A stretch of DNA of 64,000 nucleotides from Rhizobacter sp. GTDB lineage: Bacteria > Pseudomonadota > Gammaproteobacteria > Burkholderiales > Burkholderiaceae_C. The position numbers and the translations under genes were made by a program. The notes beneath the pieces are model-generated. The model made no database searches and was not told the DNA's origin. It worked only from the letters and a program-made list of their open reading frames with translations. The stretch is from assembly GCA_025355745.1 (NCBI GenBank), contig JANXZA010000072.1, forward strand, positions 12,850 to 76,849, read 5' to 3'. How positions within the stretch are numbered: position 1 is the stretch's first letter; the number at the start of each line of letters is the position of its first letter. This document shows, one piece after another, positions 16,195 to 56,730 of this stretch.

Positions 16195-16234
16195 CTCCCC
16201 CTCTCCCGCTCGCGGGAGAGGGTTGGGGCGAGGG
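16195..16234. repeat. REP-like hairpin, family B (CCCTCTCCC...GGGAGAGGG)
   Basis: CCCTCTCCCGCTCGCGGGAGAGGGTTGGGGCGAGGG; a related copy in the opposite orientation lies at 23824-23885. Confidence 0.7.
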
Positions 16235-16270
16235 CGGTTGGTGGCGCAAACATACTGCTGATCGTTTCCG

Positions 16271-38599: not shown

Positions 38600-38902
38600 T
38601 CACGACAAGATGATTGACGCGCCGGCAGCGGCCGCAGGAGGCGCAGTTGCCGTCGCGGCGTTGGCACTCGCATGGGCCGCGCGTTGGCGGGCTTCACCTT
38701 CGGCAATGAAGCGTGCGGCGAGCACCAGCGCGCCCATCGAGAAGTCTTTGCCATGGGCGGCGGTCATCGCGCTGGCGATGTCGGCGAGCTGCTTGAAGAA
38801 CGCGTCCTTGCTGGCGGATTCGGCGTCGGCGCCAGCGCCAGCGCTCAAATCTTTTAAGTCATTCATATCATTCGGCTCATTCATGTCACGTGCCTGATTC
38901 AT
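38600..38902 (-). CDS. Small hypothetical protein in the monooxygenase accessory operon
   Basis: KDAFFKQLADIASAMTAAHGKDFSMGALVLAARFIAEG; ATGA overlap with the WD40 gene. Start could be one of several Met codons. Confidence 0.7.
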   Translation of the reverse strand: MNQARDMNEPNDMNDLKDLSAGAGADAESASKDAFFKQLADIASAMTAAHGKDFSMGALVLAARFIAEGEARQRAAHASANAATATAPPAAAAGASIILS

Positions 38903-40056
38903 CGCATGGCCCTTTCGGTTGTTTCAGAACCCGTGCGAGCGGGGCTGCGCACGGCAAAGAGCGGGTCCGGCAGTTCGACCCAGCCGAACACGCCGTCCTG
39001 GGTTCCAAAGGCGAGCCGGCTGCCGTCACCCGACCAGGCCAGCGCGTTCACCGCACCACCGCCCGAACCCTTGATGAACAGGCCTTCGTCGCTGCCCGGG
39101 CGGCACAGCATCACCGCGCCGTTGCCGTAGCCGGCCGCGATCAGCGACTGCTTCGGATGGCAACTGACGCAGTTCACCGGCGTCTGGCTCGGGATGCCGC
39201 ACTCGAGCGGCGAGCCGGCCGCGCCGGGCGGGTCGAACCCCCAGCACACCGGCCGGGTGCCGCCGCTGGTGGCAAGGTAGCGACCGTCGTGCGAGAACGA
39301 CAGCGACAGCGGCTGGCCCGGGTAGCCGCCCATTTCGATGTCGCCACCATCGGCGACGCGCCAGCCGTGCAGCGCGTTCTCCTGCATGCCGGTGACGAGG
39401 TAGCGGCCATCGTCGCTCCACGCCAGCGCGCGGTGGTAGCCCGGCCACACGAGCCGGCGAGGCAGCGCCGCGCTGGCCCACAGCGTGACCCCGCCACTGT
39501 GCGCTGCGGCCAGGCAGCTGCTGTCGCGGCTGAAGGCGAGTGCGGTGGCCGGCGCCGGCAGTTCGATGCTGTCGGTGCTGACCGAGCGGTCCTTGTTGTC
39601 GGCGCCCAGCGTCGTCATGCGGTGCAGGTTGCGGCCGCTGGCATACGCGCGCACGCCCATCCTGCTGCATGCCAGCGCATCGATCCAGGCACCGGGCAGA
39701 TCGGCCAGCACGACCGGGTTGCCGATGCGCGGCACATGGACCACGCGGCCATCGTCGCCCCCGGTGATGAAGCCGCCGCTGGCATCGCCGACCACCGTCA
39801 GGCAACTGCCTTGATGGCAATTGACTCGCACCGGCCGAGGCGGCGGCGACTCTGCTGCCACCACCGCCACGCCACCGCCCGGTTTGGGCTCGACGCGCGG
39901 GCCGCCGCGCCACTTCGCATTCGCTACGGCGAGGTGGCCGTCGCCGAGCGCGAAGCCGACCATGCCGCTCTCGACGCCCCAGGCCAGCGCGACCACCGGC
40001 GCGCCGAATTCCCAGCTCGCACCGAGCAGCGACAACAAGGATGCCGGCGCGTTCAT
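38899..40056 (-). CDS. WD40 repeat (beta-propeller) protein
   Basis: Repeated ALAFS/ALAWS..DG.. and GxDDG blades; overlaps cobW. Confidence 0.85.
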
Positions 40057-42874: not shown

Positions 42875-43528
42875 CTACCCGCGCAGCCGCGCGACCATGA
42901 ACGCTGCCGCTTGAGTCAAGTGGGCGCGCACCAGGGTCTCAGCGCGGTCGCCTGCGCCGTCGATGATGGCGCCGAGGATTTCCGCGTGCTGGATCCAGAT
43001 GTCGCGCGGCGTCTCGTCGCGGGTCAGCACTTCGCCCATCACGCGCTGCGTGCAGGTCAGGTACGGAGCCAGCGTCGGCGCCATCAGCGGATTGCCCGAC
43101 AGCAAATTGATGACCGCGTGGAATTGCATGTCCGCAGCGATCATCTTCGGCACCGAGCCGCTGGCCACCGCCTTGCGGCCGGCCTCGATCAGCGCCGGCC
43201 CCAGCGCTGCGGCGCGCTTTGCGTTGCGTTCGGCGGCGAGCCGGCATGCCAGCCCTTCGATCACGGCGCGCAGGTCGTACATGTGGCGCACGTATTCCGG
43301 GTCCAGCGGCGCAACGATCAGCCGGCGGCCGGGCGCGTCGCGCAGCACTCCCTGGTTGAGCAGCACCGTCAGCGCTTGCTGGACCGGTTGGCGCGACACG
43401 CCCAGCGTGTGGGCCAGCGACGTCTGGACGAGGCGGTCGCCCGGCGCGAGCCGGCCCGAGGTGATCCCGTTCAGGATGGCGGCGTGCACCTGCTCGACGA
43501 GGCTGGGCGGGGCGGGCAGCGCCTTCAT
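42875..43528 (-). CDS. GntR (FCD) family transcriptional regulator, paralog 1
   Basis: SLVEQVHAAILNGITSGRLAPGDRL..LGVSRQPVQQAL wHTH plus FCD domain. Confidence 0.93.
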   Translation of the reverse strand: MKALPAPPSLVEQVHAAILNGITSGRLAPGDRLVQTSLAHTLGVSRQPVQQALTVLLNQGVLRDAPGRRLIVAPLDPEYVRHMYDLRAVIEGLACRLAAERNAKRAAALGPALIEAGRKAVASGSVPKMIAADMQFHAVINLLSGNPLMAPTLAPYLTCTQRVMGEVLTRDETPRDIWIQHAEILGAIIDGAGDRAETLVRAHLTQAAAFMVARLRG

Positions 43529-43656
43529 GGTGTCACTTTCGATCGAAACCAAACGGCGCTGACACAGCCAGCGCCCAGGCACGCCGCGATCACGCGGATC
43601 ACAGCATGCAGGAAACCGGCGCGGCGTCACAGTCGGGATAACACTGACTACAGAAC

Positions 43657-43668
43657 TCTGAATTCAGA
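43657..43668. promoter_or_regulatory. Palindromic operator TCTGAATTCAGA
   Basis: Perfect 12-bp palindrome in the gntR/Rieske divergent region; recurs at 54274 and 54317. Confidence 0.65.
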
Positions 43669-43789: not shown

Positions 43790-44374
43790 ATGCCCTCACG
43801 AAACCCCTGCAGTTGCAACGGCGAGATCCCCTTCGACGCGGGCCGACGCAAGGTCATCCAGATCGGCGCCGCCGGCTTTGTCTCGCCCTGGGCACTGGCA
43901 CCGAGCCTCGCCCTTGCCAAGCCGATGGTCGGCGACCGCCTGGTCGAGGACGATGCCGAAGGCACGCCGGCGCCGCTGCGCGCCTCGGACCTGCGTCCTG
44001 GCAAGCCATTACTCGCCTTCCCGTTCGACGCCATCAAGGGCGAGGTGCGCAGCGACTCGCGTCTGAACAAGATCGTGCTGATGCGCTTCGCCGAGGCCGA
44101 CATGAACGCCGAAACCCGCGCCCGCTCGGCCGGTGGCGTGGTGGCGTTTTCGGCCATCTGCACGCACCAGGGCTGCGACGTGAAGACCTGGCTGCCGAAG
44201 GAGCAGGCGCTGGTCTGCTTCTGCCACTCGACCAAGTTCCTGCTGCTCGAAGGCGGCAGCGTGGCCAGCGGCCCGGCGCTGCGCTCCCTGCCCTCTCTGC
44301 CCTTGTCACTCGACGGCGATCAGCTCGTGATCGCCGGGCCTTTCAGTGCGCCTGCGGGTGGCACGACGGCTTGA
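43790..44374 (+). CDS. Rieske 2Fe-2S protein with Tat-like signal
   Basis: GRRKVIQIGAAG signal; CTHQGC...CFCHSTKF Rieske ligands; GPALRSLP. Confidence 0.9.
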   Translation: MPSRNPCSCNGEIPFDAGRRKVIQIGAAGFVSPWALAPSLALAKPMVGDRLVEDDAEGTPAPLRASDLRPGKPLLAFPFDAIKGEVRSDSRLNKIVLMRFAEADMNAETRARSAGGVVAFSAICTHQGCDVKTWLPKEQALVCFCHSTKFLLLEGGSVASGPALRSLPSLPLSLDGDQLVIAGPFSAPAGGTTA

Positions 44375-44412
44375 CCTTTTCGTTTGCCCCACCACCCCAA
44401 GGAGATGAACCC

Positions 44413-46146
44413 ATGAAGTTTCTGTTGAACCGAATTGCAGTCGGTATCGCCGCCGCACTCCCCTGCATCGCAGCCCAGGCCGCACCGGCGACCTACTCGC
44501 CCGTCACCGACGCGCGGCTGAGCAACCCCGAGCCGGCCAACTGGCTGCAGTACCGCGGCAACTACGCGGGCTGGGGCTACAGCGCGCTGGACAAGGTCAC
44601 CAGCAAGAACGTTGACAAGCTGACGCTGGCCTGGGCGTTTGCGACCGGCCAGACCGACGGCCACCAATCGCCGCCGGTGGTCAACAACGGCTACATGTAT
44701 GTCACCACGCCGGGCTCGCAGGTGATCGCCCTCGACGCCAAGACCGGTGCGGAGCTGTGGCGCTACAAAAAGGACGTGTCGGCCGAGATGCTGCAGCTGC
44801 ACCCGACGAATCGCGGCGTGGCGCTGTACGGCGACAAGGTCTACGTGGCCACGGTCGACTGCTTCCTCGTGGCGCTCGACGCGAAGACCGGCAAGGTCGC
44901 CTGGATCAAGCCCGTCGGCGACTGGAAGGCACTGCAATACATGACGCTCGCGCCGCTGGCGGCCAAGGGCAAGATCATGGTCGGTTCTTCCGGCGGCGAG
45001 ACCGGTGTGCGTGGCTTCGTCGCAGCCTACGACGCAGAGACTGGCGCGGAGGCTTGGCGCACTTACACCACGGCCGCACCTGGCGATGTCGGCGGCGACT
45101 CCTGGCCCGGCGACACCCACAAGAATGGCGGCGGCAGCATCTGGATCACCGGCACCTACGACCCGGCTGCCAACCTCGCCTACTGGGGCACCGGCAACCC
45201 GGCGCCGTGGCCGACCGAAGAGCGCAAGGGCGACAACCTGTACACCACCTCGACGATCGCACTCGACGTCGACACCGGCAAGATCAAGGGCCACCACCAG
45301 TACACGCCGAACGATGCCTGGGACTGGGACGAGGTCTCGGCGCCGCTGCTGATCGATACCGAAATCAAGGGCCGCAAGGTCAAGGCGGCCGTGCATGCCG
45401 GGCGCAACGGCTACCTCTGGATGCTGGAGCGCAAGGACGGCCCGATCGGCTTCATCGACGCCGTCTCCTACGTCAACAACAACGTCTTCGCGTCGGTCGA
45501 CAAGGTCACCGGCCGGCCGACCTACAACCTCGACAAGCGCCCCGGCGTCGGCAAAGGCAATGTGACCTTCTGCCCGTCGCTTTGGGGCGGCAAGGACTGG
45601 GTGCCGGAAGCCTGGAACCCAAAGACCGGCCTGTTCTACATCCCCGCCAACAACAACCTGTGCTCGGAATTGCCCGAGCCCGAGGCCCTCAAATACAAGA
45701 AGGGTGACCTCTACATCGGCTACCCGATCGACAAGGTGCTGGGCGGCCTGAAGTATCAGGACGGCAAGGCCCCGGCGACGATCGGCGAGTTGCAGGCCTG
45801 GGACCTGAAGACCGGCAAGCTGGCCTGGGTGCACAAGTTCCCGACCTTCAACTGGGGCCCACTGCTGACCACCGGCGGCAACCTGGTGTTCGCCGGCGGC
45901 ACCAACGACCGCATGTTCCGTGCCTTCGACGCTACCAACGGCAAGGTGCTGTGGGAAACCGCCACGCCGTCGGGTGTGACCGGCGTGCCGAGTTCATTCG
46001 AAATCGACGGCGAGCAGTACGTGGCCGTGCAGTCCGGCTGGGGCGTCGATGCCCAGCGCATGCAGGCCGGCATCGACACCTTGTCGGGCAAGGTCACCGG
46101 CGTGCCGCAGGGCGGCTCGGTGATGGTCTACAAGCTCTCGAAGTGA
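44413..46146 (+). CDS. Periplasmic PQQ-dependent dehydrogenase (methanol/ethanol family fold)
   Basis: Sec signal; WLQYRGNYAGWGYSAL, HQSPPVV, ALDAKTG repeats, GGETGVRG, YWGTGNP, GDNLY, DAWDWD; GGAG RBS. Confidence 0.93.
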   Translation: MKFLLNRIAVGIAAALPCIAAQAAPATYSPVTDARLSNPEPANWLQYRGNYAGWGYSALDKVTSKNVDKLTLAWAFATGQTDGHQSPPVVNNGYMYVTTPGSQVIALDAKTGAELWRYKKDVSAEMLQLHPTNRGVALYGDKVYVATVDCFLVALDAKTGKVAWIKPVGDWKALQYMTLAPLAAKGKIMVGSSGGETGVRGFVAAYDAETGAEAWRTYTTAAPGDVGGDSWPGDTHKNGGGSIWITGTYDPAANLAYWGTGNPAPWPTEERKGDNLYTTSTIALDVDTGKIKGHHQYTPNDAWDWDEVSAPLLIDTEIKGRKVKAAVHAGRNGYLWMLERKDGPIGFIDAVSYVNNNVFASVDKVTGRPTYNLDKRPGVGKGNVTFCPSLWGGKDWVPEAWNPKTGLFYIPANNNLCSELPEPEALKYKKGDLYIGYPIDKVLGGLKYQDGKAPATIGELQAWDLKTGKLAWVHKFPTFNWGPLLTTGGNLVFAGGTNDRMFRAFDATNGKVLWETATPSGVTGVPSSFEIDGEQYVAVQSGWGVDAQRMQAGIDTLSGKVTGVPQGGSVMVYKLSK

Positions 46147-46202: not shown

Positions 46203-47198
46203 CTACACCAGCAGGGCGACCGCCGCCGAGAAGCTCAGGAAGGCGAGTGCGGTGCTGACCAGGACGATGCGGGCAATGCGCCCCGCATCGGCACCGAAAC
46301 GCTCCGCCAGCATCGGCACATTGCTGGCGCTGGGCAGTGCCGCCACCAGGGCCAGCACCGTCGCGGCGAAGCCGTCCAGCGGTGCCCCCAGCGCGATCGC
46401 GAGCCGGCCGGTGCCCAGCACCAGGGCCGGGTGCACGATCAGCTTGTAAAACACGATCAGCGGTACGTCGTTGCGGCGCAGCGCAGTCGTTGCGGATGCG
46501 GTTGCGGATGCGGTCAGTGCGGCCTGCATTGACGAGCGCGCGAGCATCGCGCCGAGCGCGAACAGCGCGACCGGCGACGCGGCATCGGCCAGCATCGCCA
46601 CCGGCCGCATCAGCACGCCCGGCACGCTCATGCTCGTGGCCGATACGACGCAGCCCAAACCGATCGACCAGGGCAGCGGGTTGGCGGCCATTCCCTTCAG
46701 CGCGTTCAGCACCGCCCGACTCGAGCGGTGCGCCTGGCCTGTGGCCGCCCCTGACCCGCGTCGCGACAGCGCGATGCACAGGGACGAGGTGATCACCATG
46801 TCGACGGCCAACGCCACGATGGCGGGGGCCGCAGCCCGATCGCCCAGCAGCCCGACCAGCAGCGGCACGCCCATGAAGCCCGAGTTCGGGAAGGCCGCCA
46901 CCAGCGCGCCGAACGAAGCGTCGTTCCAACCCACCCGGCCGGTGCGTGTCGTGATCACGCACAGGCCCACCATCAGCAGGGCGCACAGCAGGTAGGTGCC
47001 GAAGATGCTCGGGTCGAGCATGCGCGCGATCGGCGTTGCGGCGCCGAAGCGGAACAGCATGCAGGGCAGGGCGAAATACAGCACGAACAGATTCAGCCCC
47101 GGGATCGACTCCAGCGGCAGCCAGCCGCAGCGCGCGACGGCATAGCCGCACAACACCAGCGCGAAGAATGGAAAGGTGATCTCGAGGATGTGCAGCAT
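46203..47198 (-). CDS. AEC (auxin efflux carrier) family transporter
   Basis: FVLYFALPCMLF, FPNSGFMGVPL, ALPSASNV; about 10 TM. Confidence 0.9.
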   Translation of the reverse strand: MLHILEITFPFFALVLCGYAVARCGWLPLESIPGLNLFVLYFALPCMLFRFGAATPIARMLDPSIFGTYLLCALLMVGLCVITTRTGRVGWNDASFGALVAAFPNSGFMGVPLLVGLLGDRAAAPAIVALAVDMVITSSLCIALSRRGSGAATGQAHRSSRAVLNALKGMAANPLPWSIGLGCVVSATSMSVPGVLMRPVAMLADAASPVALFALGAMLARSSMQAALTASATASATTALRRNDVPLIVFYKLIVHPALVLGTGRLAIALGAPLDGFAATVLALVAALPSASNVPMLAERFGADAGRIARIVLVSTALAFLSFSAAVALLV

Positions 47199-47208
47199 TC
47201 GCCTAGAT

Positions 47209-47261
47209 CAAGGTCACCAAGGTCACCGACGTCACCAACGTCAACACCGTCAACACCGTCA
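47209..47261. repeat. Degenerate 9-bp tandem repeat filling the intergenic gap
   Basis: CAAGGTCAC CAAGGTCAC CGACGTCAC CAACGTCAA CACCGTCAA CACCGTCA. Confidence 0.7.
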
Positions 47262-48305
47262 GCGGTCGCCCAGGCTGCTCGAACCCGCAGCCTGAACCCG
47301 CTGCGCCTGGCGCCAGCCGGCCTCGGCAATCGGCTGCGCCTGCTGCCCCGTGCGTTCAGCGTCGGCGCTGGCCGCGCTGCCCTGGCGCGCTCGCGCCAGG
47401 ATGCCCTGCAGGATCGCCGCCATCCGGAACATGTTGAATGCCAGGTAGTAGTCCCAGTGCGGCAGGCTGGCGCGGCCGGTGCGCTTGCAGTAGGCGGCCA
47501 GGTAAGCGTCTTCCGAGGGGATGCCGAGGGCGGCGAGTTCGTGCCCCTTCAGGCCGCGGAACTCCGTCGGCGTGACGCGCCAGGCCATGCCGTGGTAGGC
47601 CAGATCGACGAGCGGGTGGCCGAGCGTGGAGAGTTCCCAGTCGAGCACCGCCAGCACCCGCGCTTCGGTCGGGTGGAAGATCAGGTTGTCGATGCGGAAG
47701 TCGCCGTGCACGAGCGCGGTTTCGTCGCCCTCGGGGCGGTTCGCCGGCAGCCAATCGATCAGCCGCTCCATCGCGTCGATGCGCCCGGTTTCGCTGGCGC
47801 GGTACTGGCGCGTCCAGCGCTCAATCTGGCGCGCCAGGTAGTTCTGCGGCCGGCCGTAATCGGCCAGGCCCAGCGCTTGCACATCGACACCGTGCAGCGC
47901 GGCGATGACGCGGTTCATCTCGGCGTAGACCGCGCCGCGCTCGGGGTTCGTCAGGCCGGGCAGCGCGGGGTCGGCGAAGACGCGGCCCTCGATGAAGTCC
48001 ATCACGTAGAACGGCGAGCCGATGACCGCCGGGTCTTCGCACAGCGCGTGCATGCGCGGCACCGGCACGCCGCTGCCGGCGAGCGCGGCCATCACGCGGT
48101 ACTCGCGCTCGATGGCGTGTGCCGAGGCCAGCAGCACCCCCGGCGGCTTGCGGCGCAGCACCCAGCGGTGTTCGCCGGCGCTGACCCGGTAGGTCGGGTT
48201 CGACTGGCCGCCGATGAGCTGCGCCACCTGCAGCGGGCCATGGAAGTCAGTGACATGGCGGCGCAGGTAGGTCGCCAGGGCCTCTACGGGCAGCAGTTCG
48301 ATCAC
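47259..48305 (-). CDS. APH/phosphotransferase family protein (ACAD10/11 N-terminal-like)
   Basis: GGQSNPTY, LRRKPPG, HAIEREY, HGDFRIDN, VLDWELSTLG; GTG start overlaps the upstream stop. Confidence 0.92.
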   Translation of the reverse strand: MIELLPVEALATYLRRHVTDFHGPLQVAQLIGGQSNPTYRVSAGEHRWVLRRKPPGVLLASAHAIEREYRVMAALAGSGVPVPRMHALCEDPAVIGSPFYVMDFIEGRVFADPALPGLTNPERGAVYAEMNRVIAALHGVDVQALGLADYGRPQNYLARQIERWTRQYRASETGRIDAMERLIDWLPANRPEGDETALVHGDFRIDNLIFHPTEARVLAVLDWELSTLGHPLVDLAYHGMAWRVTPTEFRGLKGHELAALGIPSEDAYLAAYCKRTGRASLPHWDYYLAFNMFRMAAILQGILARARQGSAASADAERTGQQAQPIAEAGWRQAQRVQAAGSSSLGDR

Positions 48306-49489
48306 GGCGGCGCGGCCGCCGGCCGCGCGCCCTTCAGGATGCGCTTGGCCAGGCTCCAGCGGTGCACCTCGGACGGGCCGTCGTAGATGCGGAAGGCGCG
48401 CATGTCGGCAAAGATGCGCGCCACCACCGTCTCGCCGGTCACGCCCTGGCCGCCGAGGATCTGCACACAGCGGTCGGCGACGCGCCAGACCGCCTCGGAG
48501 ACGACGACCTTGGCGCGGCTCGACTCGTGCAGCGCGAGCTGGCCCTGGTCGAGCACCCAGGCGCAGTGCTGCACCGTCAGGCGCGCAATGTGCAGGTCCA
48601 TCTCGTTGTCGGCCAGCATGAAGCCCACGCCTTCGTGCTCGCCGATCGGCCGGCCGAAGGCGAGCCGGCGGCGCGCGTAGTCGAGCGCCACGTCGTGGGC
48701 ACGGCGCGCCGCGCCAAGCCAGCGCATGCAGTGCGTCAGCCGCGCGGGCGACAGCCGCACCTGCGCGTACCGGAAGCCCTGGCCCAGCTCGCCGAGGATG
48801 GCCGAGGCGGGCACCCGCAGGCCTTCGAAGCGCAGCACGCCGTGCCCGCCGGGAAAGCAGGTGTCGAGCGTGTCCATGTTGCGTTCCAGCGTGATGCCGG
48901 GCGTGCCCATGTCGGCCAAGAACATGGTCGCACCGACGTCGGGCACCTTGGCCATGATGATGGCGAGCGCTGCGCCGTCGGCGCCGGTGATGAACCACTT
49001 GTGGCCGTTGATGACGTAGTGGCCGTCGGCAGCGTCGAGCACGGCGGTGGTCGTCATCATCGACGGGTCGCTGCCGGCGCCCGGCGCCGGCTCGGTCATG
49101 CAGAAACAGGAGCGGATGCGCCCTTCGGCCATCGGCCGCAGCCACTGCTCCTTCTGCTGCGCCGTGGCCACGGCCTCGAGCAAATGCATATTGCCTTCGT
49201 CGGGCGCGAAAATGTTCAGCGCCACCGGGCCGAGCATCGAGTAGCCAGCCTCCTCGAACGCCACCGCGCGGCCGATGTGCGACAGGCCGAGGCCACCGTA
49301 CTCGGCCGCCGCGTGCGGCGACAGCAGCCCGGCGCGCCGCGCCTTGTCGACGAGCGCCTCGCGCAGCGCTTCTTCCGGGCCGTGCGCGCCCTGGCGCGGA
49401 TCGGCTTCGAAGGGCATCACCTCGTCGGCGATGAAACGCTTGATGCGGGCCTGCAGTTCGATCAGTTCGGGTGTCAGCGTGAAGTCCAT
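48302..49489 (-). CDS. Acyl-CoA dehydrogenase
   Basis: FCMTEPAPGAGSD, INGHKWFITGA, RLSPARLTHCMRW, FRIYDGPSEVH. Confidence 0.93.
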   Translation of the reverse strand: MDFTLTPELIELQARIKRFIADEVMPFEADPRQGAHGPEEALREALVDKARRAGLLSPHAAAEYGGLGLSHIGRAVAFEEAGYSMLGPVALNIFAPDEGNMHLLEAVATAQQKEQWLRPMAEGRIRSCFCMTEPAPGAGSDPSMMTTTAVLDAADGHYVINGHKWFITGADGAALAIIMAKVPDVGATMFLADMGTPGITLERNMDTLDTCFPGGHGVLRFEGLRVPASAILGELGQGFRYAQVRLSPARLTHCMRWLGAARRAHDVALDYARRRLAFGRPIGEHEGVGFMLADNEMDLHIARLTVQHCAWVLDQGQLALHESSRAKVVVSEAVWRVADRCVQILGGQGVTGETVVARIFADMRAFRIYDGPSEVHRWSLAKRILKGARPAAAPP

Positions 49490-49520
49490 GGTCTCGGTCT
49501 GAATCTCGGTTCGGGGCGGC

Positions 49521-51254
49521 TCAGCTTTGCCGCCATTTGTGCTCGGCTTCGTCCCAAGCGCCCAGTGCCTGCAGGTCGGGCACCCAGGCCAGGCCGGACT
49601 TGGCGTCGGAGGATACGGCCTCGGGCGTGACCAGAACGTCGAGCAGCGCCGGCCGCCCGGCACGAACCACGGCCAGCGCGCGCTGGATCGCACCCGGCAG
49701 GTCCTCGGCGCGCTCGACGCGTTCGGCGTGCAGGCCGAAGGCGCGCGCCATCGCGGCGTGGTCGGCAAACTGCAGCCGCGTTCCCACCACCTTGCCGTGG
49801 GTCTCCTGCTGGTCGCGCACCTCGATCGCCCAACTGCCGTTGTTGGCGACCACGATCAGCACCGGCGCCTTGTGGCGCGCGGCGGTGTCGATCTCCATCG
49901 CGTTGAAGCCGAACGCGCCGTCGCCGGTGGCCACGACCACGGTGCGGTCCGGGCAGGCCAGGCTGGCCGCCACGCCGAACGGCGTGCCGATGCCGATGCA
50001 GCCCAGCGAGCCGGGGTCGAGATAACTCGTGGCGGGCAGGCCGACCCGCGCGAAGCTGAGGAAGTCGCCGCCATCGGCGACCAGGATGGCGTCGCGCGGC
50101 AAGGCCTCGCGCAGCGCGGCCAGCAGCCGGTTGGGGTGCATCAGGCCGTCACGGCCGGGCGCCGCCTGGGCCATCGAAGTGACCAGCTTGTCGGCGCGCG
50201 CCTGGTGCTTGGCGCGGGTGCTGCGTGCCCACTCGATGTCGGTGGCCGGGGCGCGGTCAGCGCCGCGTTCGAGGATGGCTTCGAGCGCTGCGGCCGGGCT
50301 GGCGTAGATCTCGGCCGCGCCGCGCCGGTTGTCGCGCAGCTCGGCAGCGCAGTCGGCGATGCGCACGAAGCGCGCGCCGCCGAACACCGCCGGCGAGCCA
50401 TAGGCAAGCTGGAAGTCGAGCCGGCGGCCGACCGTGACCACCACGTCGGCCTCGCTCATCACCGAGCCGCGCATCGCCGCCACCACCGATGGGTGGTCTT
50501 CGGGCACCAGGCCTCGGCTCTCGCCGGTGTCGAGGTAGAGCGCGTTCAGACGCCCGAGCAGGCGCTGCAGTGGCGCCCCTGCCGCGCGCGCGCCACGGCC
50601 GGAGATGAACAGCGGTCGGCGCGCCGACCAGAGCAGCTCGACCGCCTCGTCGATGGCCGCCGGATCGGGCAGCAGGCTGCGCTTGGGCCGTGGCGCCATC
50701 AGCTCCGGCAGTTGCACCGCACGCGAGACTTCGGCGCGCAGCGTGTCGACCGGGAAGTCGAGGTACACCGGGCCCGGCTCGCCAGCGTGGCCGAGCGCGC
50801 GCGCCACGGCTTCGTCCAGCTCCTGCAGCGCCAGGTCGGGCTCGCGCACGGTGCGGGCGTAGCGCGTCAGCGGGCGCACGAAGTCGGTGTGGACCATGTC
50901 CTGCAGCGCGCCGCGGTTCTCCTGCGCGCGCGGCGGCGTGCCCGAGAGCACCAGCACCGGCGCCTTGGCCACGTGCGCATTTGCAATGCCGGTCATCGCG
51001 TTGGTGACACCGGGGCCGGCAGTGACCAGCGCCACGCCGAGGCCGCCAGTGAGTTCGGCATGGGCGTGCGCCATGTAGACGGCGGCGCGCTCATCACGCA
51101 CGTCGATGATGCGGATGCCTTCGGCGTCGAGCCGCATCCAGATCGGCATGATGTGGCCACCGCACAGGCCGAACACGCGGTCGACGCCGCGCGCCTTCAG
51201 AAAGCGCGCCACCAGCGCGGCGGTGCAGGTGTCGGAAACGGTGGGGCTGCTCAT
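49521..51254 (-). CDS. ThDP-dependent enzyme, IlvBL/2-hydroxyacyl-CoA lyase-like
   Basis: LCGGHI, RDERAA, AGPG, VADGGDF, GDGAFGF..NN ThDP motif. Confidence 0.85.
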   Translation of the reverse strand: MSSPTVSDTCTAALVARFLKARGVDRVFGLCGGHIMPIWMRLDAEGIRIIDVRDERAAVYMAHAHAELTGGLGVALVTAGPGVTNAMTGIANAHVAKAPVLVLSGTPPRAQENRGALQDMVHTDFVRPLTRYARTVREPDLALQELDEAVARALGHAGEPGPVYLDFPVDTLRAEVSRAVQLPELMAPRPKRSLLPDPAAIDEAVELLWSARRPLFISGRGARAAGAPLQRLLGRLNALYLDTGESRGLVPEDHPSVVAAMRGSVMSEADVVVTVGRRLDFQLAYGSPAVFGGARFVRIADCAAELRDNRRGAAEIYASPAAALEAILERGADRAPATDIEWARSTRAKHQARADKLVTSMAQAAPGRDGLMHPNRLLAALREALPRDAILVADGGDFLSFARVGLPATSYLDPGSLGCIGIGTPFGVAASLACPDRTVVVATGDGAFGFNAMEIDTAARHKAPVLIVVANNGSWAIEVRDQQETHGKVVGTRLQFADHAAMARAFGLHAERVERAEDLPGAIQRALAVVRAGRPALLDVLVTPEAVSSDAKSGLAWVPDLQALGAWDEAEHKWRQS

Positions 51255-51308: not shown

Positions 51309-53195
51309 TCAAAGAAAGCCGGTGGAAATCCACGGCACGGCCGTGACGATGGCCAGCCCTACCAGCAGCGCCAGCACATAGCCGACGATCGGCTTCATGC
51401 CGTCCTTCGGGTCGACGCGGCCGATGGCGCAGGCGGCGTAGTAGCCCACGCCGAAGGGCGGCGCGAACAAGCCCACGCCCATCGCCAACACGACGACCAT
51501 CGCGTAATGCACCTCGTGGACGCCGACCTGGCGGGCGATCGGGAACAGCAGCGGCCCGAACAGCACGATGGCCGGGATGCCTTCGAGCACGCTGCCCAGC
51601 ACGATGAAAGCCACCACGGACACGAACAGGAACATCGGCACGCCACCGGGCAGCGCGCCCATCGCCGCCGCCAGGCTGTTGGAGAAGCCCGACTGCGTCA
51701 GCGACCAGGCCATGGCCGTGGCGGTGCCGATGATGAACAGAATGGCGCCCGACAGCGCGGCGGTTTCCACCAGCATCGGAAACATGCGGTTCCACTTCGT
51801 CTGGCGGTAGATCAGCAGCCCGGCGATCAGCGCGTAGGCGATGCCCAGGGTCGAGACCTCGGTGGCCGTGGCCACGCCGTACACGACGGCGGCGCGGATC
51901 ACGAATGGCAGCGCGACGGCGGGCAGTGCGACCAGCAGGGCCTGGCCGATCTGGCGGCCGGTGGCGCGCTTCACCTGCGACAGGTCTTCGTGGCGATAGC
52001 GCCAGCCGATCACGGCGCACAGCGCCAGCCCCATCACCACGCCGGGCAGCATGCCGCCGGTGAAGAGCGCGGCGATCGAGACGCCGGTCACCGAGCCGAT
52101 GGTGATGAGCACCAGGCTGGGCGGGATGGTCTCGGTCTGCGCGCCGCTGGTGGCCAGCAGTGCCACCAGGTCGCCGGGCTTGGCACCGCGCTGGCGCATT
52201 TCGGGGAACAGCACCGGGGCGACGGCGGCCATGTCGGCCACCTTCGAGCCCGAGATGCCCGACACCAGGTACATCGCGCCGATCAGCACATACGACAGCC
52301 CGCCGCGCACATGGCCGATCAGGCTGGCCAGGAACGTGACCATGGCGCGCGCCATGCCGGTGGCCTCGATCAACAGGCCGAGGAAGACGAACAGCGGCAC
52401 CGCCAGCAGGATGATGTGCGACATGCCCTCGTCCATGCGGCCGACGATCACGCCGACCGGCAGCGTCGTCGTCAGCGCCAGAAAGCCGAACGTGGCCAGG
52501 CCGAAGGACACCGCGATCGGCACGCCGATCAGCACCGTGAAGGCGGTGACGCCGACGAAGAAGATCACCAGATTGAGCTTGCCCAGGCCCGGCAGCAGCG
52601 GCTGCAGCAGCCACAGCAGCAGGCCGACCGCGATGACCGCTCCGACTGCGGCGCCGGCCTGCCGCCAGTCGGCAGTCTTGAACAGGCGCAGCAGCGACAT
52701 CAGCGCCATCAAGCCCAGCCCCACGGGCAACGCAGCGGCACGCCAGGCGGCCGAAATGTCGAGTGCTGGCGTGGTCACCGCCGCTTCTTCGAGCACGTGC
52801 TCATAGGCCGGCCACAGGTTGAGCAGCAGGAAGGCCAGTGCGGCGGCGATGGCCACGGTGTCGAGGAAGGCGCGCAACTTCGGCGAGGCCTTCGCCACCA
52901 GCGCCGTCATGCGCATGTGCTCGCCGTGGCGGAAGGCCACCACGGCCCCCAGGCTGACGAGCCACAGGAACAGCAGCGAGGCGACTTCGTCGGTCCAGAC
53001 CAGCGGCAGGTGGAGAAAGTAGCGCGAGACCACGCCCATGAACAGGATCACGATTTCGGCCACGATCAGCGTGGCTGCGATCGCCTCGATGGCGCCGCCC
53101 AGGCGGCGGTCCAGCGCCAGCACCCAGACGTTCGTGCTGCTGGGGCCGGCGCTCGGCGGCATCTCGCTGCGCAGGGGTTGCGACGGGGCGCGCAT
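51309..53195 (-). CDS. TRAP transporter fused small+large permease (DctQM)
   Basis: WTDEVASLLFLW..HMRM (DctQ) followed by ISGSKVADMAA, IPPS, FAPPFG (DctM). Start approximate. Confidence 0.92.
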   Translation of the reverse strand: MRAPSQPLRSEMPPSAGPSSTNVWVLALDRRLGGAIEAIAATLIVAEIVILFMGVVSRYFLHLPLVWTDEVASLLFLWLVSLGAVVAFRHGEHMRMTALVAKASPKLRAFLDTVAIAAALAFLLLNLWPAYEHVLEEAAVTTPALDISAAWRAAALPVGLGLMALMSLLRLFKTADWRQAGAAVGAVIAVGLLLWLLQPLLPGLGKLNLVIFFVGVTAFTVLIGVPIAVSFGLATFGFLALTTTLPVGVIVGRMDEGMSHIILLAVPLFVFLGLLIEATGMARAMVTFLASLIGHVRGGLSYVLIGAMYLVSGISGSKVADMAAVAPVLFPEMRQRGAKPGDLVALLATSGAQTETIPPSLVLITIGSVTGVSIAALFTGGMLPGVVMGLALCAVIGWRYRHEDLSQVKRATGRQIGQALLVALPAVALPFVIRAAVVYGVATATEVSTLGIAYALIAGLLIYRQTKWNRMFPMLVETAALSGAILFIIGTATAMAWSLTQSGFSNSLAAAMGALPGGVPMFLFVSVVAFIVLGSVLEGIPAIVLFGPLLFPIARQVGVHEVHYAMVVVLAMGVGLFAPPFGVGYYAACAIGRVDPKDGMKPIVGYVLALLVGLAIVTAVPWISTGFL

Positions 53196-53200
53196 GGGCG

Positions 53201-54214
53201 TCAGGCGATTTCGCCGGCGTACTGCTGCAACAGGCCCCAGGGCTCGGCGCCGAACTTTTCCTTCGCCTGGCTGTAGAAGCCGCCGCTGCTGAGAACGCGC
53301 CGGAAGGCAGTGTTGTCGACGGTGTTGAAGACGAGGCCCTTGCCCTCGAGCAGCTTTTGCAGGTCGACGTTGGCGCGGGCGATATCGTCACGCTGCTTGC
53401 GAGCCGCGCCGTTCATGTGCTTGGTGATCACTTGCTGCATATCACCCGGCAGCGATTTCCATGCCTTCCCGCCAGCCAGGAACCAGAAGCCGTCCCAGGA
53501 ATGATTGGTCAGCGAACAGAACTTCTGGACCTCGAAGAACTTGGCCGACTCGATCAGTGCCAGCGGATTTTCTTGCCCGTCGGCCACCTTGGTTTGCAGC
53601 GCTTGATACGCCTCGGCCAGCGGCAGGCTCACCGGCGCGGCGCCCAGCGTCTTGAACATCTGCACCCACAGCGGCACGACCGGCACGCGGATCTTGAAGT
53701 TCTTCAGGTCGTCGGGCGTGTTGATGGGCTTGGTGCTGGTGGTGATCTGGCGGAAGCCGTTGTCCCACACTGTGGCGAAGGGCACGACATTGATCTTCTC
53801 GATGGCCGCGCGAATGTGGTTGCCCACCGCACCGTCCATCGCGGCCCAGACCTTGTCGTAGCCGGAAAACGCGAAGCCCACTCCGGTGATCGACGTGACC
53901 GGGACCAGGGTCGACATCACCGTGCCGGGGAAGGTGGCCAGTTCGAGGGCGCCGGAGCGAATCTGCGACATCATGTCCGCGTCACCGCCCAACTGGTTGT
54001 TGGGGAACAGCTCGATCGCCACGCGGCCGCCGGTCTCGGTCGAGATTGCCGCGATTGCTTCCTTCAAGCGCACGTTCACCGAGTGCGTCACCGGCAGGTC
54101 GTTGCCCAGCTTGAGCTTGAACTCGGGCGCCTTGACCTGCGCCAGCGACAGGCCGGGCAGCGCCGCACCGGCGAATGCGCCGGTGGCGAGGAAATGTCTG
54201 CGGGTGAAGGTCAT
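53201..54214 (-). CDS. TRAP transporter substrate-binding protein (DctP family), Tat-like signal
   Basis: MTFTRRHFL, FPNNQLGGD, WDNGFRQIT, KIRVP, ADGQENP. Confidence 0.92.
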   Translation of the reverse strand: MTFTRRHFLATGAFAGAALPGLSLAQVKAPEFKLKLGNDLPVTHSVNVRLKEAIAAISTETGGRVAIELFPNNQLGGDADMMSQIRSGALELATFPGTVMSTLVPVTSITGVGFAFSGYDKVWAAMDGAVGNHIRAAIEKINVVPFATVWDNGFRQITTSTKPINTPDDLKNFKIRVPVVPLWVQMFKTLGAAPVSLPLAEAYQALQTKVADGQENPLALIESAKFFEVQKFCSLTNHSWDGFWFLAGGKAWKSLPGDMQQVITKHMNGAARKQRDDIARANVDLQKLLEGKGLVFNTVDNTAFRRVLSSGGFYSQAKEKFGAEPWGLLQQYAGEIA

Positions 54215-54273: not shown

Positions 54274-54332
54274 TCTGAATTCAGAGTGCTAATATCAGGG
54301 CTATCCCTAGTCGAACTCTGAATTCAGAGTTC
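54274..54332. promoter_or_regulatory. Two palindromic operators in the TRAP / CoA-ligase divergent promoter
   Basis: TCTGAATTCAGA at 54274-54285 and a perfect 20-bp GAACTCTGAATTCAGAGTTC at 54313-54332. Confidence 0.75.
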
Positions 54333-54383: not shown

Positions 54384-55946
54384 ATGAACCATCTGCTGAC
54401 CGTGGCCGACGCTGTGGCAGCGCATGCACGCCTGCAGCCGCAGAAGGTCGGCGCCCGCGATTCGCGGCGCGCGCTGACCTTCGCCCAGTGGCACGAACGC
54501 GCCAGCCGGCTGGCCAACGGCCTGCTCGCGCTGGGTCTGGTGAAGGGCGACCGCGTGGCGCTGCTGGCCTACAACTGCATCGAGTGGATGGAGATGTATG
54601 CCGCCCTGGCGCGCGCCGGTCTGGTGGCGGTGCCGATCAATTTCCGGCTCACCGCGCCGGAGATCGCCTACATCGCCACGCACTGCGAGGCGCGTGCCTT
54701 CATCGTGCAGCAGGAACTGCTCGATCACGTCGATTCGATCCGCCCCGATCTGACCATTGAGCCCCACGCGTACATCAACATCGGCGCCGCGGCTGCCCCC
54801 GGCTGGCAAGGCTACGAGGCACTGATTGAAGGCGCCGGCACGCAAGACCCGCCGCAGGCCGTTCTACCGGCCGACCCGTGCGCGCTGATGTACACCTCGG
54901 GCACGACCGGGCGACCGAAGGGCGCCATCCGCAGCCACGAAGGCAACACGCTGATCGCACTGGCGACGGCGCTGGAGATGGGCTTCACGCGCCATGACAC
55001 GGCGCTGCTGGTGATGCCGATGTGCCATGCCAACTCGCTGTACTTCAGCCACACCTTCGTTCACCTGGGCGCCACCTGCGTGATCGACGACCGCAAGAGC
55101 TTTGACCCCGAGGCGCTGCTGGCCACGCTGGCGCGCGAGAAGGTGACCTTCACCTCGCTGGTGCCGACCCACTACATCATGATGCTGGGCCTGCCCGAAG
55201 CCACCAAGGCGCGGTACGACGTGAGCGCAGTCGAAAAGCTGATGATCTCCTCGGCCCCGGCGCGCAAGGACACGAAACTCGCGATCCTGGAGCACTTCCG
55301 CAATGGCCGGCTTTACGAGTTGTACGGCTCCACCGAAGCCGGCTGGGTGACCTTGCTGCACCCCGAAGAGCAGATCGACAGGCTCGGTTCGGTGGGGCGC
55401 GAATGGGCCGGCTCCGGCGCCATCCGCATGCTTGACCCACAAGGCCACGAAGTGCCGGACGGCGAGGTCGGCGAGCTGCACTCGCGCACGCCCTACGTCT
55501 TCGACGGCTACTGGAAGGACGCGCAGAAGACGGCCGAATGCTTTCGCGACGGCTGGTGCTCGGTGGGCGACATGGCGCGCCGCGGCGAAGGCGGCTACAT
55601 CACGCTGGTGGATCGCAAGAGCAATATGATCATCAGCGGCGGCGAGAACATCTATCCGTCCGAGGTCGAAAGCATCTTTGGCGCGCACCCGCAGATCAAG
55701 GATGTGGCCATCATCGGCCTGCCGCACGAGAAGTGGGGCGAGGCCGTGCAGGCCGTCATCGTGCTCCACCTCGGGCAACAGGCCACGGCCGCACAAATGC
55801 TGGATTGGTGCCGCGGCCGCATGGCGGGCTACAAGCGCCCGCAGTCGGTGGTCTTCATCGCCGACCACGACATGCCGCGCACCGCCACCGGCAAGATCCT
55901 GCATCGCGTGTTGCGCGACCGGCTGAGCATGCAGGCCCTGAGTTGA
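54384..55946 (+). CDS. AMP-dependent acyl-CoA synthetase
   Basis: YTSGTTGRPKG, YGSTEAG, VGDMA, DRKSNMIISGGENIYP, GKIL; AGGAG RBS. Confidence 0.94.
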   Translation: MNHLLTVADAVAAHARLQPQKVGARDSRRALTFAQWHERASRLANGLLALGLVKGDRVALLAYNCIEWMEMYAALARAGLVAVPINFRLTAPEIAYIATHCEARAFIVQQELLDHVDSIRPDLTIEPHAYINIGAAAAPGWQGYEALIEGAGTQDPPQAVLPADPCALMYTSGTTGRPKGAIRSHEGNTLIALATALEMGFTRHDTALLVMPMCHANSLYFSHTFVHLGATCVIDDRKSFDPEALLATLAREKVTFTSLVPTHYIMMLGLPEATKARYDVSAVEKLMISSAPARKDTKLAILEHFRNGRLYELYGSTEAGWVTLLHPEEQIDRLGSVGREWAGSGAIRMLDPQGHEVPDGEVGELHSRTPYVFDGYWKDAQKTAECFRDGWCSVGDMARRGEGGYITLVDRKSNMIISGGENIYPSEVESIFGAHPQIKDVAIIGLPHEKWGEAVQAVIVLHLGQQATAAQMLDWCRGRMAGYKRPQSVVFIADHDMPRTATGKILHRVLRDRLSMQALS

Positions 55947-56037
55947 CGGGCATCCGCCGGCCTCGCGCCTCAGCCTTCCCCGACGGCGCGAGAATGTGCT
56001 CTTGTTTCTTTCAACGATCTGCAACGACCGGCGAAGC

Positions 56038-56730
56038 ATGAAGGCCCTTACGACCCAGCCCAACCTCGTGGAGCAAGTCCGCGATGCGGTGCTCGACGAA
56101 ATCACCTCCGGTCACCTGGCGCCGGGCGAGCGCATCATCCAGGAGCAGATCGCGCAGGCGCTGGGCGTGTCGCGCCAGCCGGTCCAGCAAGCGCTGATGC
56201 TGCTGCGCAACCAGGGTGTGCTGCACGACGCGCCGGGCCGCGGCCTGCTCGTCGCGTCGCTGGACCCGGAGCATGTGGGCCACATGTACGACATGCGCGC
56301 GGTGATTGAAGGCCTGGCCTGCCGCCGCGCGGCGCAAACCGGCGCCGAACGCGCCGCCAAGCTCGGGCCGGCATTGATCGAAGCCGGGCGCAAGGCTGTG
56401 GCCAGCGGCTCGGTCGCGAAGATGATTGCCGCCGACATGAAGTTCCACGAATTTCTCTACGCGCTGTCGGGCAATCCGCTGGTCGGGCCGGCACTTGCGA
56501 CGCACCTGACCTACACGCAGCGGGTGATGGGCGAGGTGCTGCTGCGCGACGAGAAGCCGCGCAACATCTGGGACCAGCATGCCGAGATCCTCGACGCGAT
56601 CTGTCGCCAGGACGCGCAGCGTGCCGAGGCTCTGGTGCGCCAGCACATCACGCAGGCATCGGGCTTCATGGTGTCAAGGTTGCGCGGTGATGCGGCCGGC
56701 GCGCCTGGTGCAGCCGGTGCAGCCGGATAA
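56038..56730 (+). CDS. GntR (FCD) family transcriptional regulator, paralog 2
   Basis: NLVEQVRDAVLDEITSGHLAPGERI..LGVSRQPVQQAL; long identical stretches shared with 42875-43528 (e.g. LGPALIEAGRKAVASGSV, TQRVMGEVL). Confidence 0.93.
   Translation: MKALTTQPNLVEQVRDAVLDEITSGHLAPGERIIQEQIAQALGVSRQPVQQALMLLRNQGVLHDAPGRGLLVASLDPEHVGHMYDMRAVIEGLACRRAAQTGAERAAKLGPALIEAGRKAVASGSVAKMIAADMKFHEFLYALSGNPLVGPALATHLTYTQRVMGEVLLRDEKPRNIWDQHAEILDAICRQDAQRAEALVRQHITQASGFMVSRLRGDAAGAPGAAGAAG

Follow-up and report, generated by a model that had tools for sequence, protein, structure and literature searches.

The window analysed here, a 64,000-nucleotide stretch of Rhizobacter sp. DNA with a G+C content of ~68%, contains two co-directional genes whose translations are a Rieske iron-sulfur protein followed by a pyrroloquinoline quinone (PQQ) dehydrogenase. 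The two are conserved as a pair in hundreds of other bacteria and appear to form one operon for a two-protein periplasmic dehydrogenase system, in which the Rieske protein probably takes the electrons of the dehydrogenase where relatives use cytochrome c and would hand them on to general carriers. In its full form this is the best explanation that we can offer for the sequence data, and we hold it with moderate confidence. An initial annotation had placed the pair at positions 43790-46146, coordinates that match the first base of the Rieske gene and the last of the dehydrogenase gene exactly, and had read it as a possibly lanthanide-dependent dehydrogenase that passes electrons to a dedicated exported Rieske carrier. 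Its observation is confirmed. Its core inference is supported by a pairing that holds in both directions of search, by co-divergence of the two proteins, by export signals on both, by the lack of a conserved cytochrome c gene nearby, by the contrast with paralogs in the same genome, and by membership in an uncharacterised family.

The upstream gene (43790-44374, forward strand) encodes a 194-residue Rieske [2Fe-2S] protein with a twin-arginine translocation (Tat) signal, GRRKVIQIGAAGFVSPWALAPSLALA/KP (GRRKVIQ...ALA/KP), which is probably cleaved to leave a soluble protein. The motifs CTHQGC...CFCH supply all four cluster ligands and both disulfide cysteines, the Pfam family PF00355 matches with an E value of 9e-9, and among solved structures the Rieske protein of Thermus thermophilus comes closest (1NYK/3FOU; residues 47-190, a span of 144, align with an E value of 6e-29). 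The Tat signal and the Rieske motifs together bear out the earlier reading of an exported Rieske protein directly upstream of the dehydrogenase. An alternative in-frame start, ATG 43691, has a better Shine-Dalgarno sequence (GGGAGG) and would add 33 residues to the n-region of the signal; orthologs are mostly 193-197 residues long according to gene callers. Among these orthologs the twin arginine is present in 84 of 85, and the cluster cysteines and histidines, the disulfide cysteines and the GPA (Pro) loop are each present in 85 of 85. The residues after CxCH are Ser/Thr-Lys-Phe in this family and Ser-x-Tyr in Rieske proteins of bc1 complexes; retention of a Ser-type hydroxyl and absence of the bc1 tyrosine suggest an intermediate potential for the cluster.

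Matches of the Rieske protein to NCBIfam models were all sub-threshold (actinobacterial QcrA, AioB, PetC), and every Rieske equivalog fell far under its cutoff. Assignment as AioB, the Rieske subunit of arsenite oxidase, failed, with 32.3 bits against a cutoff of 95.65 for TIGR02694 and no AioA-like gene present. Membership of an oxygenase or of a bc1 operon was ruled out by the Tat signal, the bc-type motifs and the genes alongside, which code for a GntR regulator and the PQQ enzyme and include neither cytochrome b nor cytochrome c1. A separate feature of the n-region is a Cys-x-Cys or Cys-Gly-Cys-Cys motif that often stands just before the twin arginine: CSC in the window (43790-43850), and CGCC, CTC or CAC in orthologs (loci L003, L005, L009, L015, L016, L020 and others). 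It is frequent, not universal, and could be an effect of codon composition or a feature for cytoplasmic recognition or metal binding.

The dehydrogenase gene (44413-46146, forward strand) begins at ATG 44413, behind a Shine-Dalgarno sequence AAGGAG at 44400-44405 on the same strand, and is separated from the Rieske stop by 38 nt. No terminator-like site was found in this spacer, both matches of the scan (43555-43575 and 43863-43875) lying outside it. The 577-residue product carries a Sec signal (...CIAAQA/AP) and belongs to the methanol/ethanol family of PQQ-dependent dehydrogenases (TIGR03075, 556.9 bits against a cutoff of 480.05). Its closest solved relative is PedH of Pseudomonas putida (6ZCV, E 1e-102), and in this alignment Glu196, Asn275, the catalytic Asp304, the lanthanide-type Asp306, the PQQ-binding arginine and the stacking tryptophan are all in place (GGEFGV/GGETGV, GDNLY/GDNLY and WDFD/WDWD in PedH and the window enzyme, respectively). 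The metal ligands E, N and D-W-D named in the initial annotation are thus real, and the PQQ and metal ligand positions are invariant among 20 clade members aligned, including D304-W-D306, which corresponds to D-F-D in PedH. The vicinal Cys-Cys pair is indeed absent: RPCCDVINRG of PedH aligns with LQL-HPTNRG (residues 127-135), and the histidine at the Cys-Cys position, His130, is invariant in the clade. There is no haem c domain in the dehydrogenase.

Conservation of the pairing was examined from both genes. Homologs at 71-96% identity are numerous; one genome per species was scanned, giving 352 relatives, and 80 loci were fetched. Rieske genes were located and counted by tblastn, as GC3-based (third-codon-position G+C) gene calls of these loci merged or missed some genes. 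A Rieske gene lay upstream on the same strand in 77 of 77 loci with upstream sequence, directly so in 76 and at a distance of 2.7 kb, across an insert, in L041; the other three of the 80 loci start at a contig edge. Paired taxa include Rhodoferax, Polaromonas, Leptothrix, Methylibium, Aromatoleum, Zoogloea, Massilia, Limnohabitans and Polynucleobacter; pairs in Bradyrhizobium and Ideonella were found by look-ups of exact proteins, and the Azoarcus plasmid pAZKH and Methylobacterium aquaticum are paired as well. In the reverse direction, the genomes of 41 relatives and 400 sampled evenly from the order were searched with the Rieske protein, and the dehydrogenase was then sought in the matching genomes. 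Twenty-two of 23 strong matches to the Rieske subfamily lay directly upstream of a clade dehydrogenase, among them partners with 48-60% identity to the window enzyme, the lowest being 48-50%. In one of these 22 cases the dehydrogenase is frameshifted, and the twenty-third match, in genome G370, is an orphan. Genome G370 also holds a second Rieske gene (L097, G370:C13:131000-140000) followed by a dehydrogenase split over several frames, likely a decaying copy.

The module is accessory: of 25 genomes of the genus, this one and 5 of its 24 relatives have it, 6 in all, and its frequency among the sampled genomes of the order is ~4%. Where it occurs, the two proteins diverge together: over 85 pairs, pairwise identities of Rieske protein and dehydrogenase are correlated (Mantel r 0.82, a value reached in 0 of 999 permutations), and it is the Rieske protein that diverges faster (mean identity 49%, as against 74% for the dehydrogenase). 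Judged from these comparisons of sequence, the pairing is not due to chance, and the dedicated partnership claimed for it at the outset is supported by both genome searches and by the co-divergence.

The proposed relation to enzymes such as XoxF and ExaF was addressed with a tree of 129 sequences drawn from a search of 1.8 billion cluster representatives. The window enzyme falls in a monophyletic clade (SH-aLRT 100) that has H-[PDNEVY]-T-[NSK]-R-G where others have Cys-Cys, and this His-type clade stands apart from the branches of the XoxF-like and ExaF-like paralogs. P0130 and P0133, which form the sister group of the clade, have Cys-Cys, and one of the two carries a fused N-terminal cytochrome c. 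P0134, also bearing Cys-Cys, branches just outside the group and has a Tat-signal Rieske gene directly upstream, from which it follows that the Rieske partnership extends beyond the enzymes that lost the disulfide and probably predates that loss. Inside the His-type clade, a sublineage of acidic, Gln/Asp-rich and possibly halophilic proteins has no Rieske gene. In P0124 of this sublineage the upstream slot is filled by a beta-propeller protein ending in a cytochrome c domain, and in P0125 the equivalent is fused to the dehydrogenase. An enzyme without Cys-Cys can therefore operate with cytochrome c, and the presence of a cytochrome c protein in the same position shows that the slot encodes the redox partner. 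This partner (L090, 4404-5930; residues 1-510 of P0125) is a 508-residue protein without Pfam hits, made up of a beta-propeller-like N-terminus, a Gln/Asp-rich linker and the C-terminal cytochrome c.

The same sequences qualify two further points of the initial annotation. The missing disulfide had been tied to the Rieske partner; both features hold in the window, but P0134 combines Cys-Cys with a Rieske gene and P0124 and P0125 combine its absence with cytochrome c, so that the two are not strictly linked, and loss of Cys-Cys was rejected as the feature that defines Rieske partnership. Likewise, the lanthanide-type D-W-D motif stands for the window member and its close relatives, but in the deepest Rieske-paired branch (L092, L093) the motif reads D-W-A, as in calcium-type enzymes. 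Lanthanide use, if real, would thus belong to the window's subclade only, where it is plausible.

The clade appears to contain a previously named family. Plasmid pMaq22A_1p of M. aquaticum 22A encodes exactly two strong homologs, 64% and 51% identical to the window protein. The former has QLHPTNRG and D-W-D, the latter (the 144 kb copy) AFHYTNRG and D-W-A, and each is preceded by a Rieske gene. Since adh4 and adh6 are the only two genes resembling those of methanol dehydrogenase on 1p (PMC7356819), the homologs would be Adh4 and Adh6, an assignment that combines their identity to the window protein with the published gene location. Both are PQQ-dependent alcohol dehydrogenases (PQQ-ADH) of type 6a, called uncharacterised in that report (PMC7356819), in agreement with the earlier description of a little-characterised module. 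Only XoxF1 and ExaF are reported to support growth of M. aquaticum on methanol or ethanol, and no growth is reported for strains retaining only adh4 or adh6 (PMC7356819). Cys-Cys is missing in some members of group G7, which is type 6a (PMC8561711). The papers that name type 6a give no function, partner or Rieske gene for it, and the pairing was not found in full-text literature searches; within the literature searched, a Rieske-paired PQQ dehydrogenase has not been described.

Candidate cytochrome c partners were sought near the pair and beside its paralogs in the genome. As the initial annotation had stated, none is encoded close by: no open reading frame (ORF) with a CxxCH motif and coding-like GC3 occurs within ~5 kb of the pair in the window, and in the gene calls of 83 related loci each CxxCH family is limited to three loci at most. 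A WD40 ORF on the monooxygenase side (38899-40056, reverse strand), in an adh-cobW-WD40 cluster, has a single CVSCH and is not a cytochrome by Pfam. The genome has three further PQQ-ADH paralogs (C199:47990-49732, C199:51770-53680 and C22:~16230-17966), all with Cys-Cys and D-x-D. Two of the three have an adjacent cytochrome c gene, whereas the Rieske pair has none: the XoxF-like paralog is followed by a small cytochrome c with a signal peptide (C22:18143-18553, CDRCH) and the ExaF-like paralog by a fusion of a binding protein with cytochrome c (C199:49741-50958, CSHCH). No adjoining cytochrome c gene was seen for the third (C199:52010-53620). The window enzyme shares only 35-36% identity with its XoxF-like and ExaF-like paralogs. 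PQQ itself can be made in the organism, as pqqE is present (509.8 bits against a cutoff of 381) and is contiguous with pqqB/C/D-like ORFs, recognised by eye without hidden Markov models; in Bradyrhizobium, pqqA lies inside the cluster. A gene for a quinoprotein-associated SoxYZ-like carrier is found near pqqE.

A scheme that accommodates these observations is as follows. The apo-dehydrogenase would be exported by Sec and bind PQQ and a metal, in the window member probably a lanthanide, in the periplasm, and the Rieske protein would be exported by Tat already folded, with its cluster in place. Oxidation of an alcohol or diol would leave PQQH2, which would be re-oxidised in two one-electron steps with the Rieske protein as dedicated one-electron acceptor, in the place taken in related enzymes by cytochrome cL, XoxG, ExaB and PedF. 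The reduced Rieske protein would then donate to soluble cytochromes c, cupredoxins or a terminal oxidase. The midpoint potentials of Rieske clusters that bear a disulfide lie well above the potential of the PQQ/PQQH2 couple, so that the electron transfer would run downhill. Rieske proteins are also natural quinol oxidants, which react with ubiquinol at the Qo site through an exposed histidine ligand. A bolder form of the proposal, which we regard as tentative and on the whole unlikely, is that the Rieske protein oxidises enzyme-bound PQQH2 directly, by proton-coupled transfer through its exposed histidine; the invariant Leu-His that replaces Cys-Cys would open the PQQ face for docking, and the system would be a widespread and hitherto unrecognised lanthanide/PQQ entry to respiration that feeds a proteobacterial route of the alpha-oxidation type for tertiary and branched diols.

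Several observations weigh against an electron-accepting Rieske partner in a diol pathway. No downstream acceptor, be it cytochrome c, cupredoxin or oxidase, is encoded in the module; one Rieske gene, in genome G370 (L096), is an orphan; and none of 150 family representatives (50% clustering) is a Rieske-dehydrogenase fusion, their N- or C-terminal extensions bearing CxxCH motifs instead. Enzymes without Cys-Cys that have cytochrome c as neighbour or fusion exist, so a Rieske acceptor cannot be deduced simply from a missing disulfide. Conservation of the operon would also fit a non-redox structural subunit or a role in maturation. On the side of the substrate, the aldehyde dehydrogenase gene found after the pair in 15 of 33 fully flanked loci is absent from the window, the coenzyme A (CoA) ligase of the window is of the FadD type and not visibly the known 2-hydroxyisobutyrate ligase, and the substrate is inferred entirely from the neighbourhood.

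The maturation or subunit role deserves to be spelled out. The Rieske protein might be a tightly bound subunit that serves stability, folding or the loading of cofactor or metal, as MxaI and maturation factors do elsewhere, with electrons leaving through a cytochrome c encoded at another site. Strict synteny and co-divergence fit any obligate partnership, the sublineage without Cys-Cys uses cytochrome c, and the genome encodes periplasmic cytochromes c. We nevertheless consider this improbable, because the cluster ligands and disulfide cysteines are invariant in all 85 orthologs, which argues for a working redox cluster, no cytochrome c gene is conserved nearby, and a redox protein occupies the same gene position in the sister sublineage. 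Alternatively, the Rieske protein might work for a different enzyme of the regulon, or have a sensing or protective redox function (such as reactivating an over-oxidised cofactor by reduction), and have nothing but co-regulation in common with the dehydrogenase. Some loci do have other periplasmic or membrane oxidoreductases nearby, for example the Mo-hydroxylase and Fer2 genes near the pair in Bradyrhizobium (family f14, in 7 loci). These other oxidoreductases are sporadic, however, whereas the dehydrogenase is the constant neighbour, with the Rieske gene 5' of it on the same strand at every one of the 77 loci, and we think this explanation highly improbable.

The identity of the metal and the substrate is a separate matter. 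The dehydrogenase may be calcium-dependent or promiscuous for metals despite D-x-D, and may be a general enzyme of the ethanol type and not a diol enzyme, a prospect that we rate as unlikely, if by no means negligible. D-W-A occurs in deep Rieske-paired members, namely L092, L093 and the 144 kb copy of M. aquaticum; the extra aspartate, necessary in known lanthanide enzymes, is not proven to be sufficient for lanthanide use; and the nearest solved relatives are ethanol dehydrogenases. Against this, D304-W-D306 does not vary in the 20 close relatives aligned, all three other paralogs in the organism, including the XoxF-like one, are D-x-D enzymes, and M. aquaticum strains left with adh4 or adh6 as their only such gene are without reported growth on methanol or ethanol (PMC7356819).

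The pair can be compared with several known systems. With PedH/ExaF and their cytochromes PedF/ExaB, and with XoxF and XoxG, it shares the eight-bladed PQQ propeller family, the Glu, Asn, catalytic Asp and extra Asp residues, a periplasmic location and a redox partner gene beside the enzyme. That partner is a c-type cytochrome in those systems and a Rieske protein here, and the window enzyme forms a separate, well-supported clade that lacks the vicinal disulfide. Type 6a enzymes Adh4 and Adh6 have the same His-type motif with a Rieske gene upstream of each homolog. The best functional analogy outside the bc complex is arsenite oxidase AioAB, likewise a periplasmic dehydrogenase with a disulfide-bearing Rieske protein that has a Tat signal and with soluble carriers as acceptors; the catalytic subunits are not homologous, and with its own Sec signal the window dehydrogenase would not be co-exported with the Rieske protein by Tat. 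The closest relatives of the Rieske protein in sequence are those of bc complexes (T. thermophilus and the C-terminal domain of actinobacterial QcrA), which have the same ligand, disulfide and GPA motifs, but the window protein lacks adjoining cytochrome b/c1 genes and scores below the equivalog cutoffs.

The neighbourhood of the pair gives an indication of its substrate. A divergent gene for a GntR/FCD regulator (42875-43528, reverse strand; Pfam GntR and FCD; probable start ATG 43528, 217 residues) precedes the Rieske gene, and this regulator family is found in 15 of 33 fully flanked related loci. The intergenic region between them contains a palindromic, operator-like site, TCTGAATTCAGA, at 43657-43668. 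Two more copies (54274-54285 and 54317-54328) lie in the divergent promoter between dctP and a CoA ligase gene, so that the window has three exact copies, against 0.04 expected. In 49 of 84 related loci the core TGAATTCA occurs in the 400 bp ahead of the Rieske start, compared with 4.5% of background windows, and in other loci it is found upstream of the ligase gene at the head of the operon.

Genes on both sides of these additional copies make up a module. On the reverse strand are a 2-hydroxyacyl-CoA lyase, a thiamine diphosphate (ThDP) enzyme (49521-51254; NF058623, 809 bits against a cutoff of 600; PDB 7PT1, E 3e-177), and a tripartite ATP-independent periplasmic (TRAP) transporter (51309-54214) composed of a fused DctQM (51309-53195) and DctP (53201-54214), both identified with Pfam and NCBIfam. 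On the forward strand follow the AMP-forming acyl-CoA ligase (54384-55946, Pfam AMP-binding) and a second GntR/FCD regulator (55996-56730, Pfam). Directly downstream of the pair is an AEC/Mem_trans transporter gene (46203-47198, reverse strand; PF03547), whose family is found in 14 related loci and which has the same arrangement in pAZKH. When neighbour proteins were clustered over 83 loci, the most frequent families were the CoA ligase (49 loci, frequently as the gene next to the Rieske gene on its upstream side), the ThDP enzyme (34), GntR/FCD regulators (34) and an aldehyde dehydrogenase directly downstream (21); AEC and TRAP transporters recur. The window also encodes a diiron monooxygenase alpha subunit, and genes for CobW, a WD40 protein and a zinc-dependent alcohol dehydrogenase lie immediately upstream. 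A PDB search with the alpha subunit returned methane monooxygenases only, which does not settle its subgroup.

The module resembles the lyase cluster of Actinomycetospora chiangmaiensis, which encodes a ligase along with MpdB, a diol dehydrogenase that has a small subunit, and MpdC, an aldehyde dehydrogenase (PMC7176365). There, 2-methylpropane-1,2-diol is converted by way of 2-hydroxyisobutyrate to acetone and formyl-CoA, and the acetone is passed to a Mim-type diiron monooxygenase (PMC7176365). Common to both are the lyase equivalog, a CoA ligase, an alcohol-oxidising step and a GntR regulator, and the window has a soluble diiron monooxygenase as a neighbour. The differences are that the aldehyde dehydrogenase, present in many related loci, is absent from the window, that the alcohol step is catalysed by two-subunit MpdB in Actinomycetospora and would be catalysed by the PQQ enzyme with its Rieske protein here, and that the ligases are of different subfamilies. 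A GntR operator common to the pair and the lyase/ligase/TRAP module suggests that the substrate is a 1,2-diol, for example 2-methylpropane-1,2-diol. By analogy, we infer a proteobacterial counterpart of the Actinomycetospora route, which the pair would open by oxidising a diol or alcohol in the periplasm and in which 2-hydroxy acids would be converted to CoA esters and cleaved to formyl-CoA and a ketone or aldehyde.

A full module is present in Azoarcus sp. KH32C (L107), on the 738-kb plasmid pAZKH at 303183-319478, in the order GntR regulator, ThDP enzyme, AMP ligase, AEC transporter, Rieske protein, PQQ dehydrogenase, aldA, further genes and formate dehydrogenase genes. The plasmid location implies that the module is mobile, and the formate dehydrogenase neighbours fit formyl-CoA or formate as a product of the pathway. 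Two other features of the neighbourhood recur. In the window, an APH-family phosphotransferase ORF overlaps an acyl-CoA dehydrogenase ORF in a different frame (47259-49768, reverse strand), both being listed too long at the 5' end, and the trio of APH, acyl-CoA dehydrogenase and AEC transporter genes is also found near the pair in Ideonella and Massilia. At L068 (2606-3151) and 18 other loci, from Oxalobacteraceae and Limnohabitans, a secreted protein of ~181 residues with an HExxH-like motif (FHECAHA) and no NCBIfam match is encoded directly downstream of the dehydrogenase, where the aldehyde dehydrogenase otherwise sits.

Known physiological acceptors for PQQ dehydrogenases comprise c-type cytochromes, either as separate proteins or as fused domains, together with ubiquinone and cupredoxins. 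A dedicated Rieske acceptor, if true, would be a new electron outlet for these enzymes and would provide a function-level handle on PQQ-ADH type 6a, which is present in ~4% of the order's sampled genomes and in Alphaproteobacteria. M. aquaticum 22A, for which adh4 and adh6 mutants exist, Azoarcus sp. KH32C, Aromatoleum evansii (strain KB740) and Leptothrix discophora are tractable carriers of the pair. The finding bears on the role of the vicinal disulfide in quinoproteins and on the reach of lanthanide enzymes beyond methylotrophy. It also bears on the proteobacterial breakdown, through 2-hydroxyacyl-CoA lyase, of tertiary diols and 2-hydroxyisobutyrate, which are products of fuel oxygenates and isobutene.

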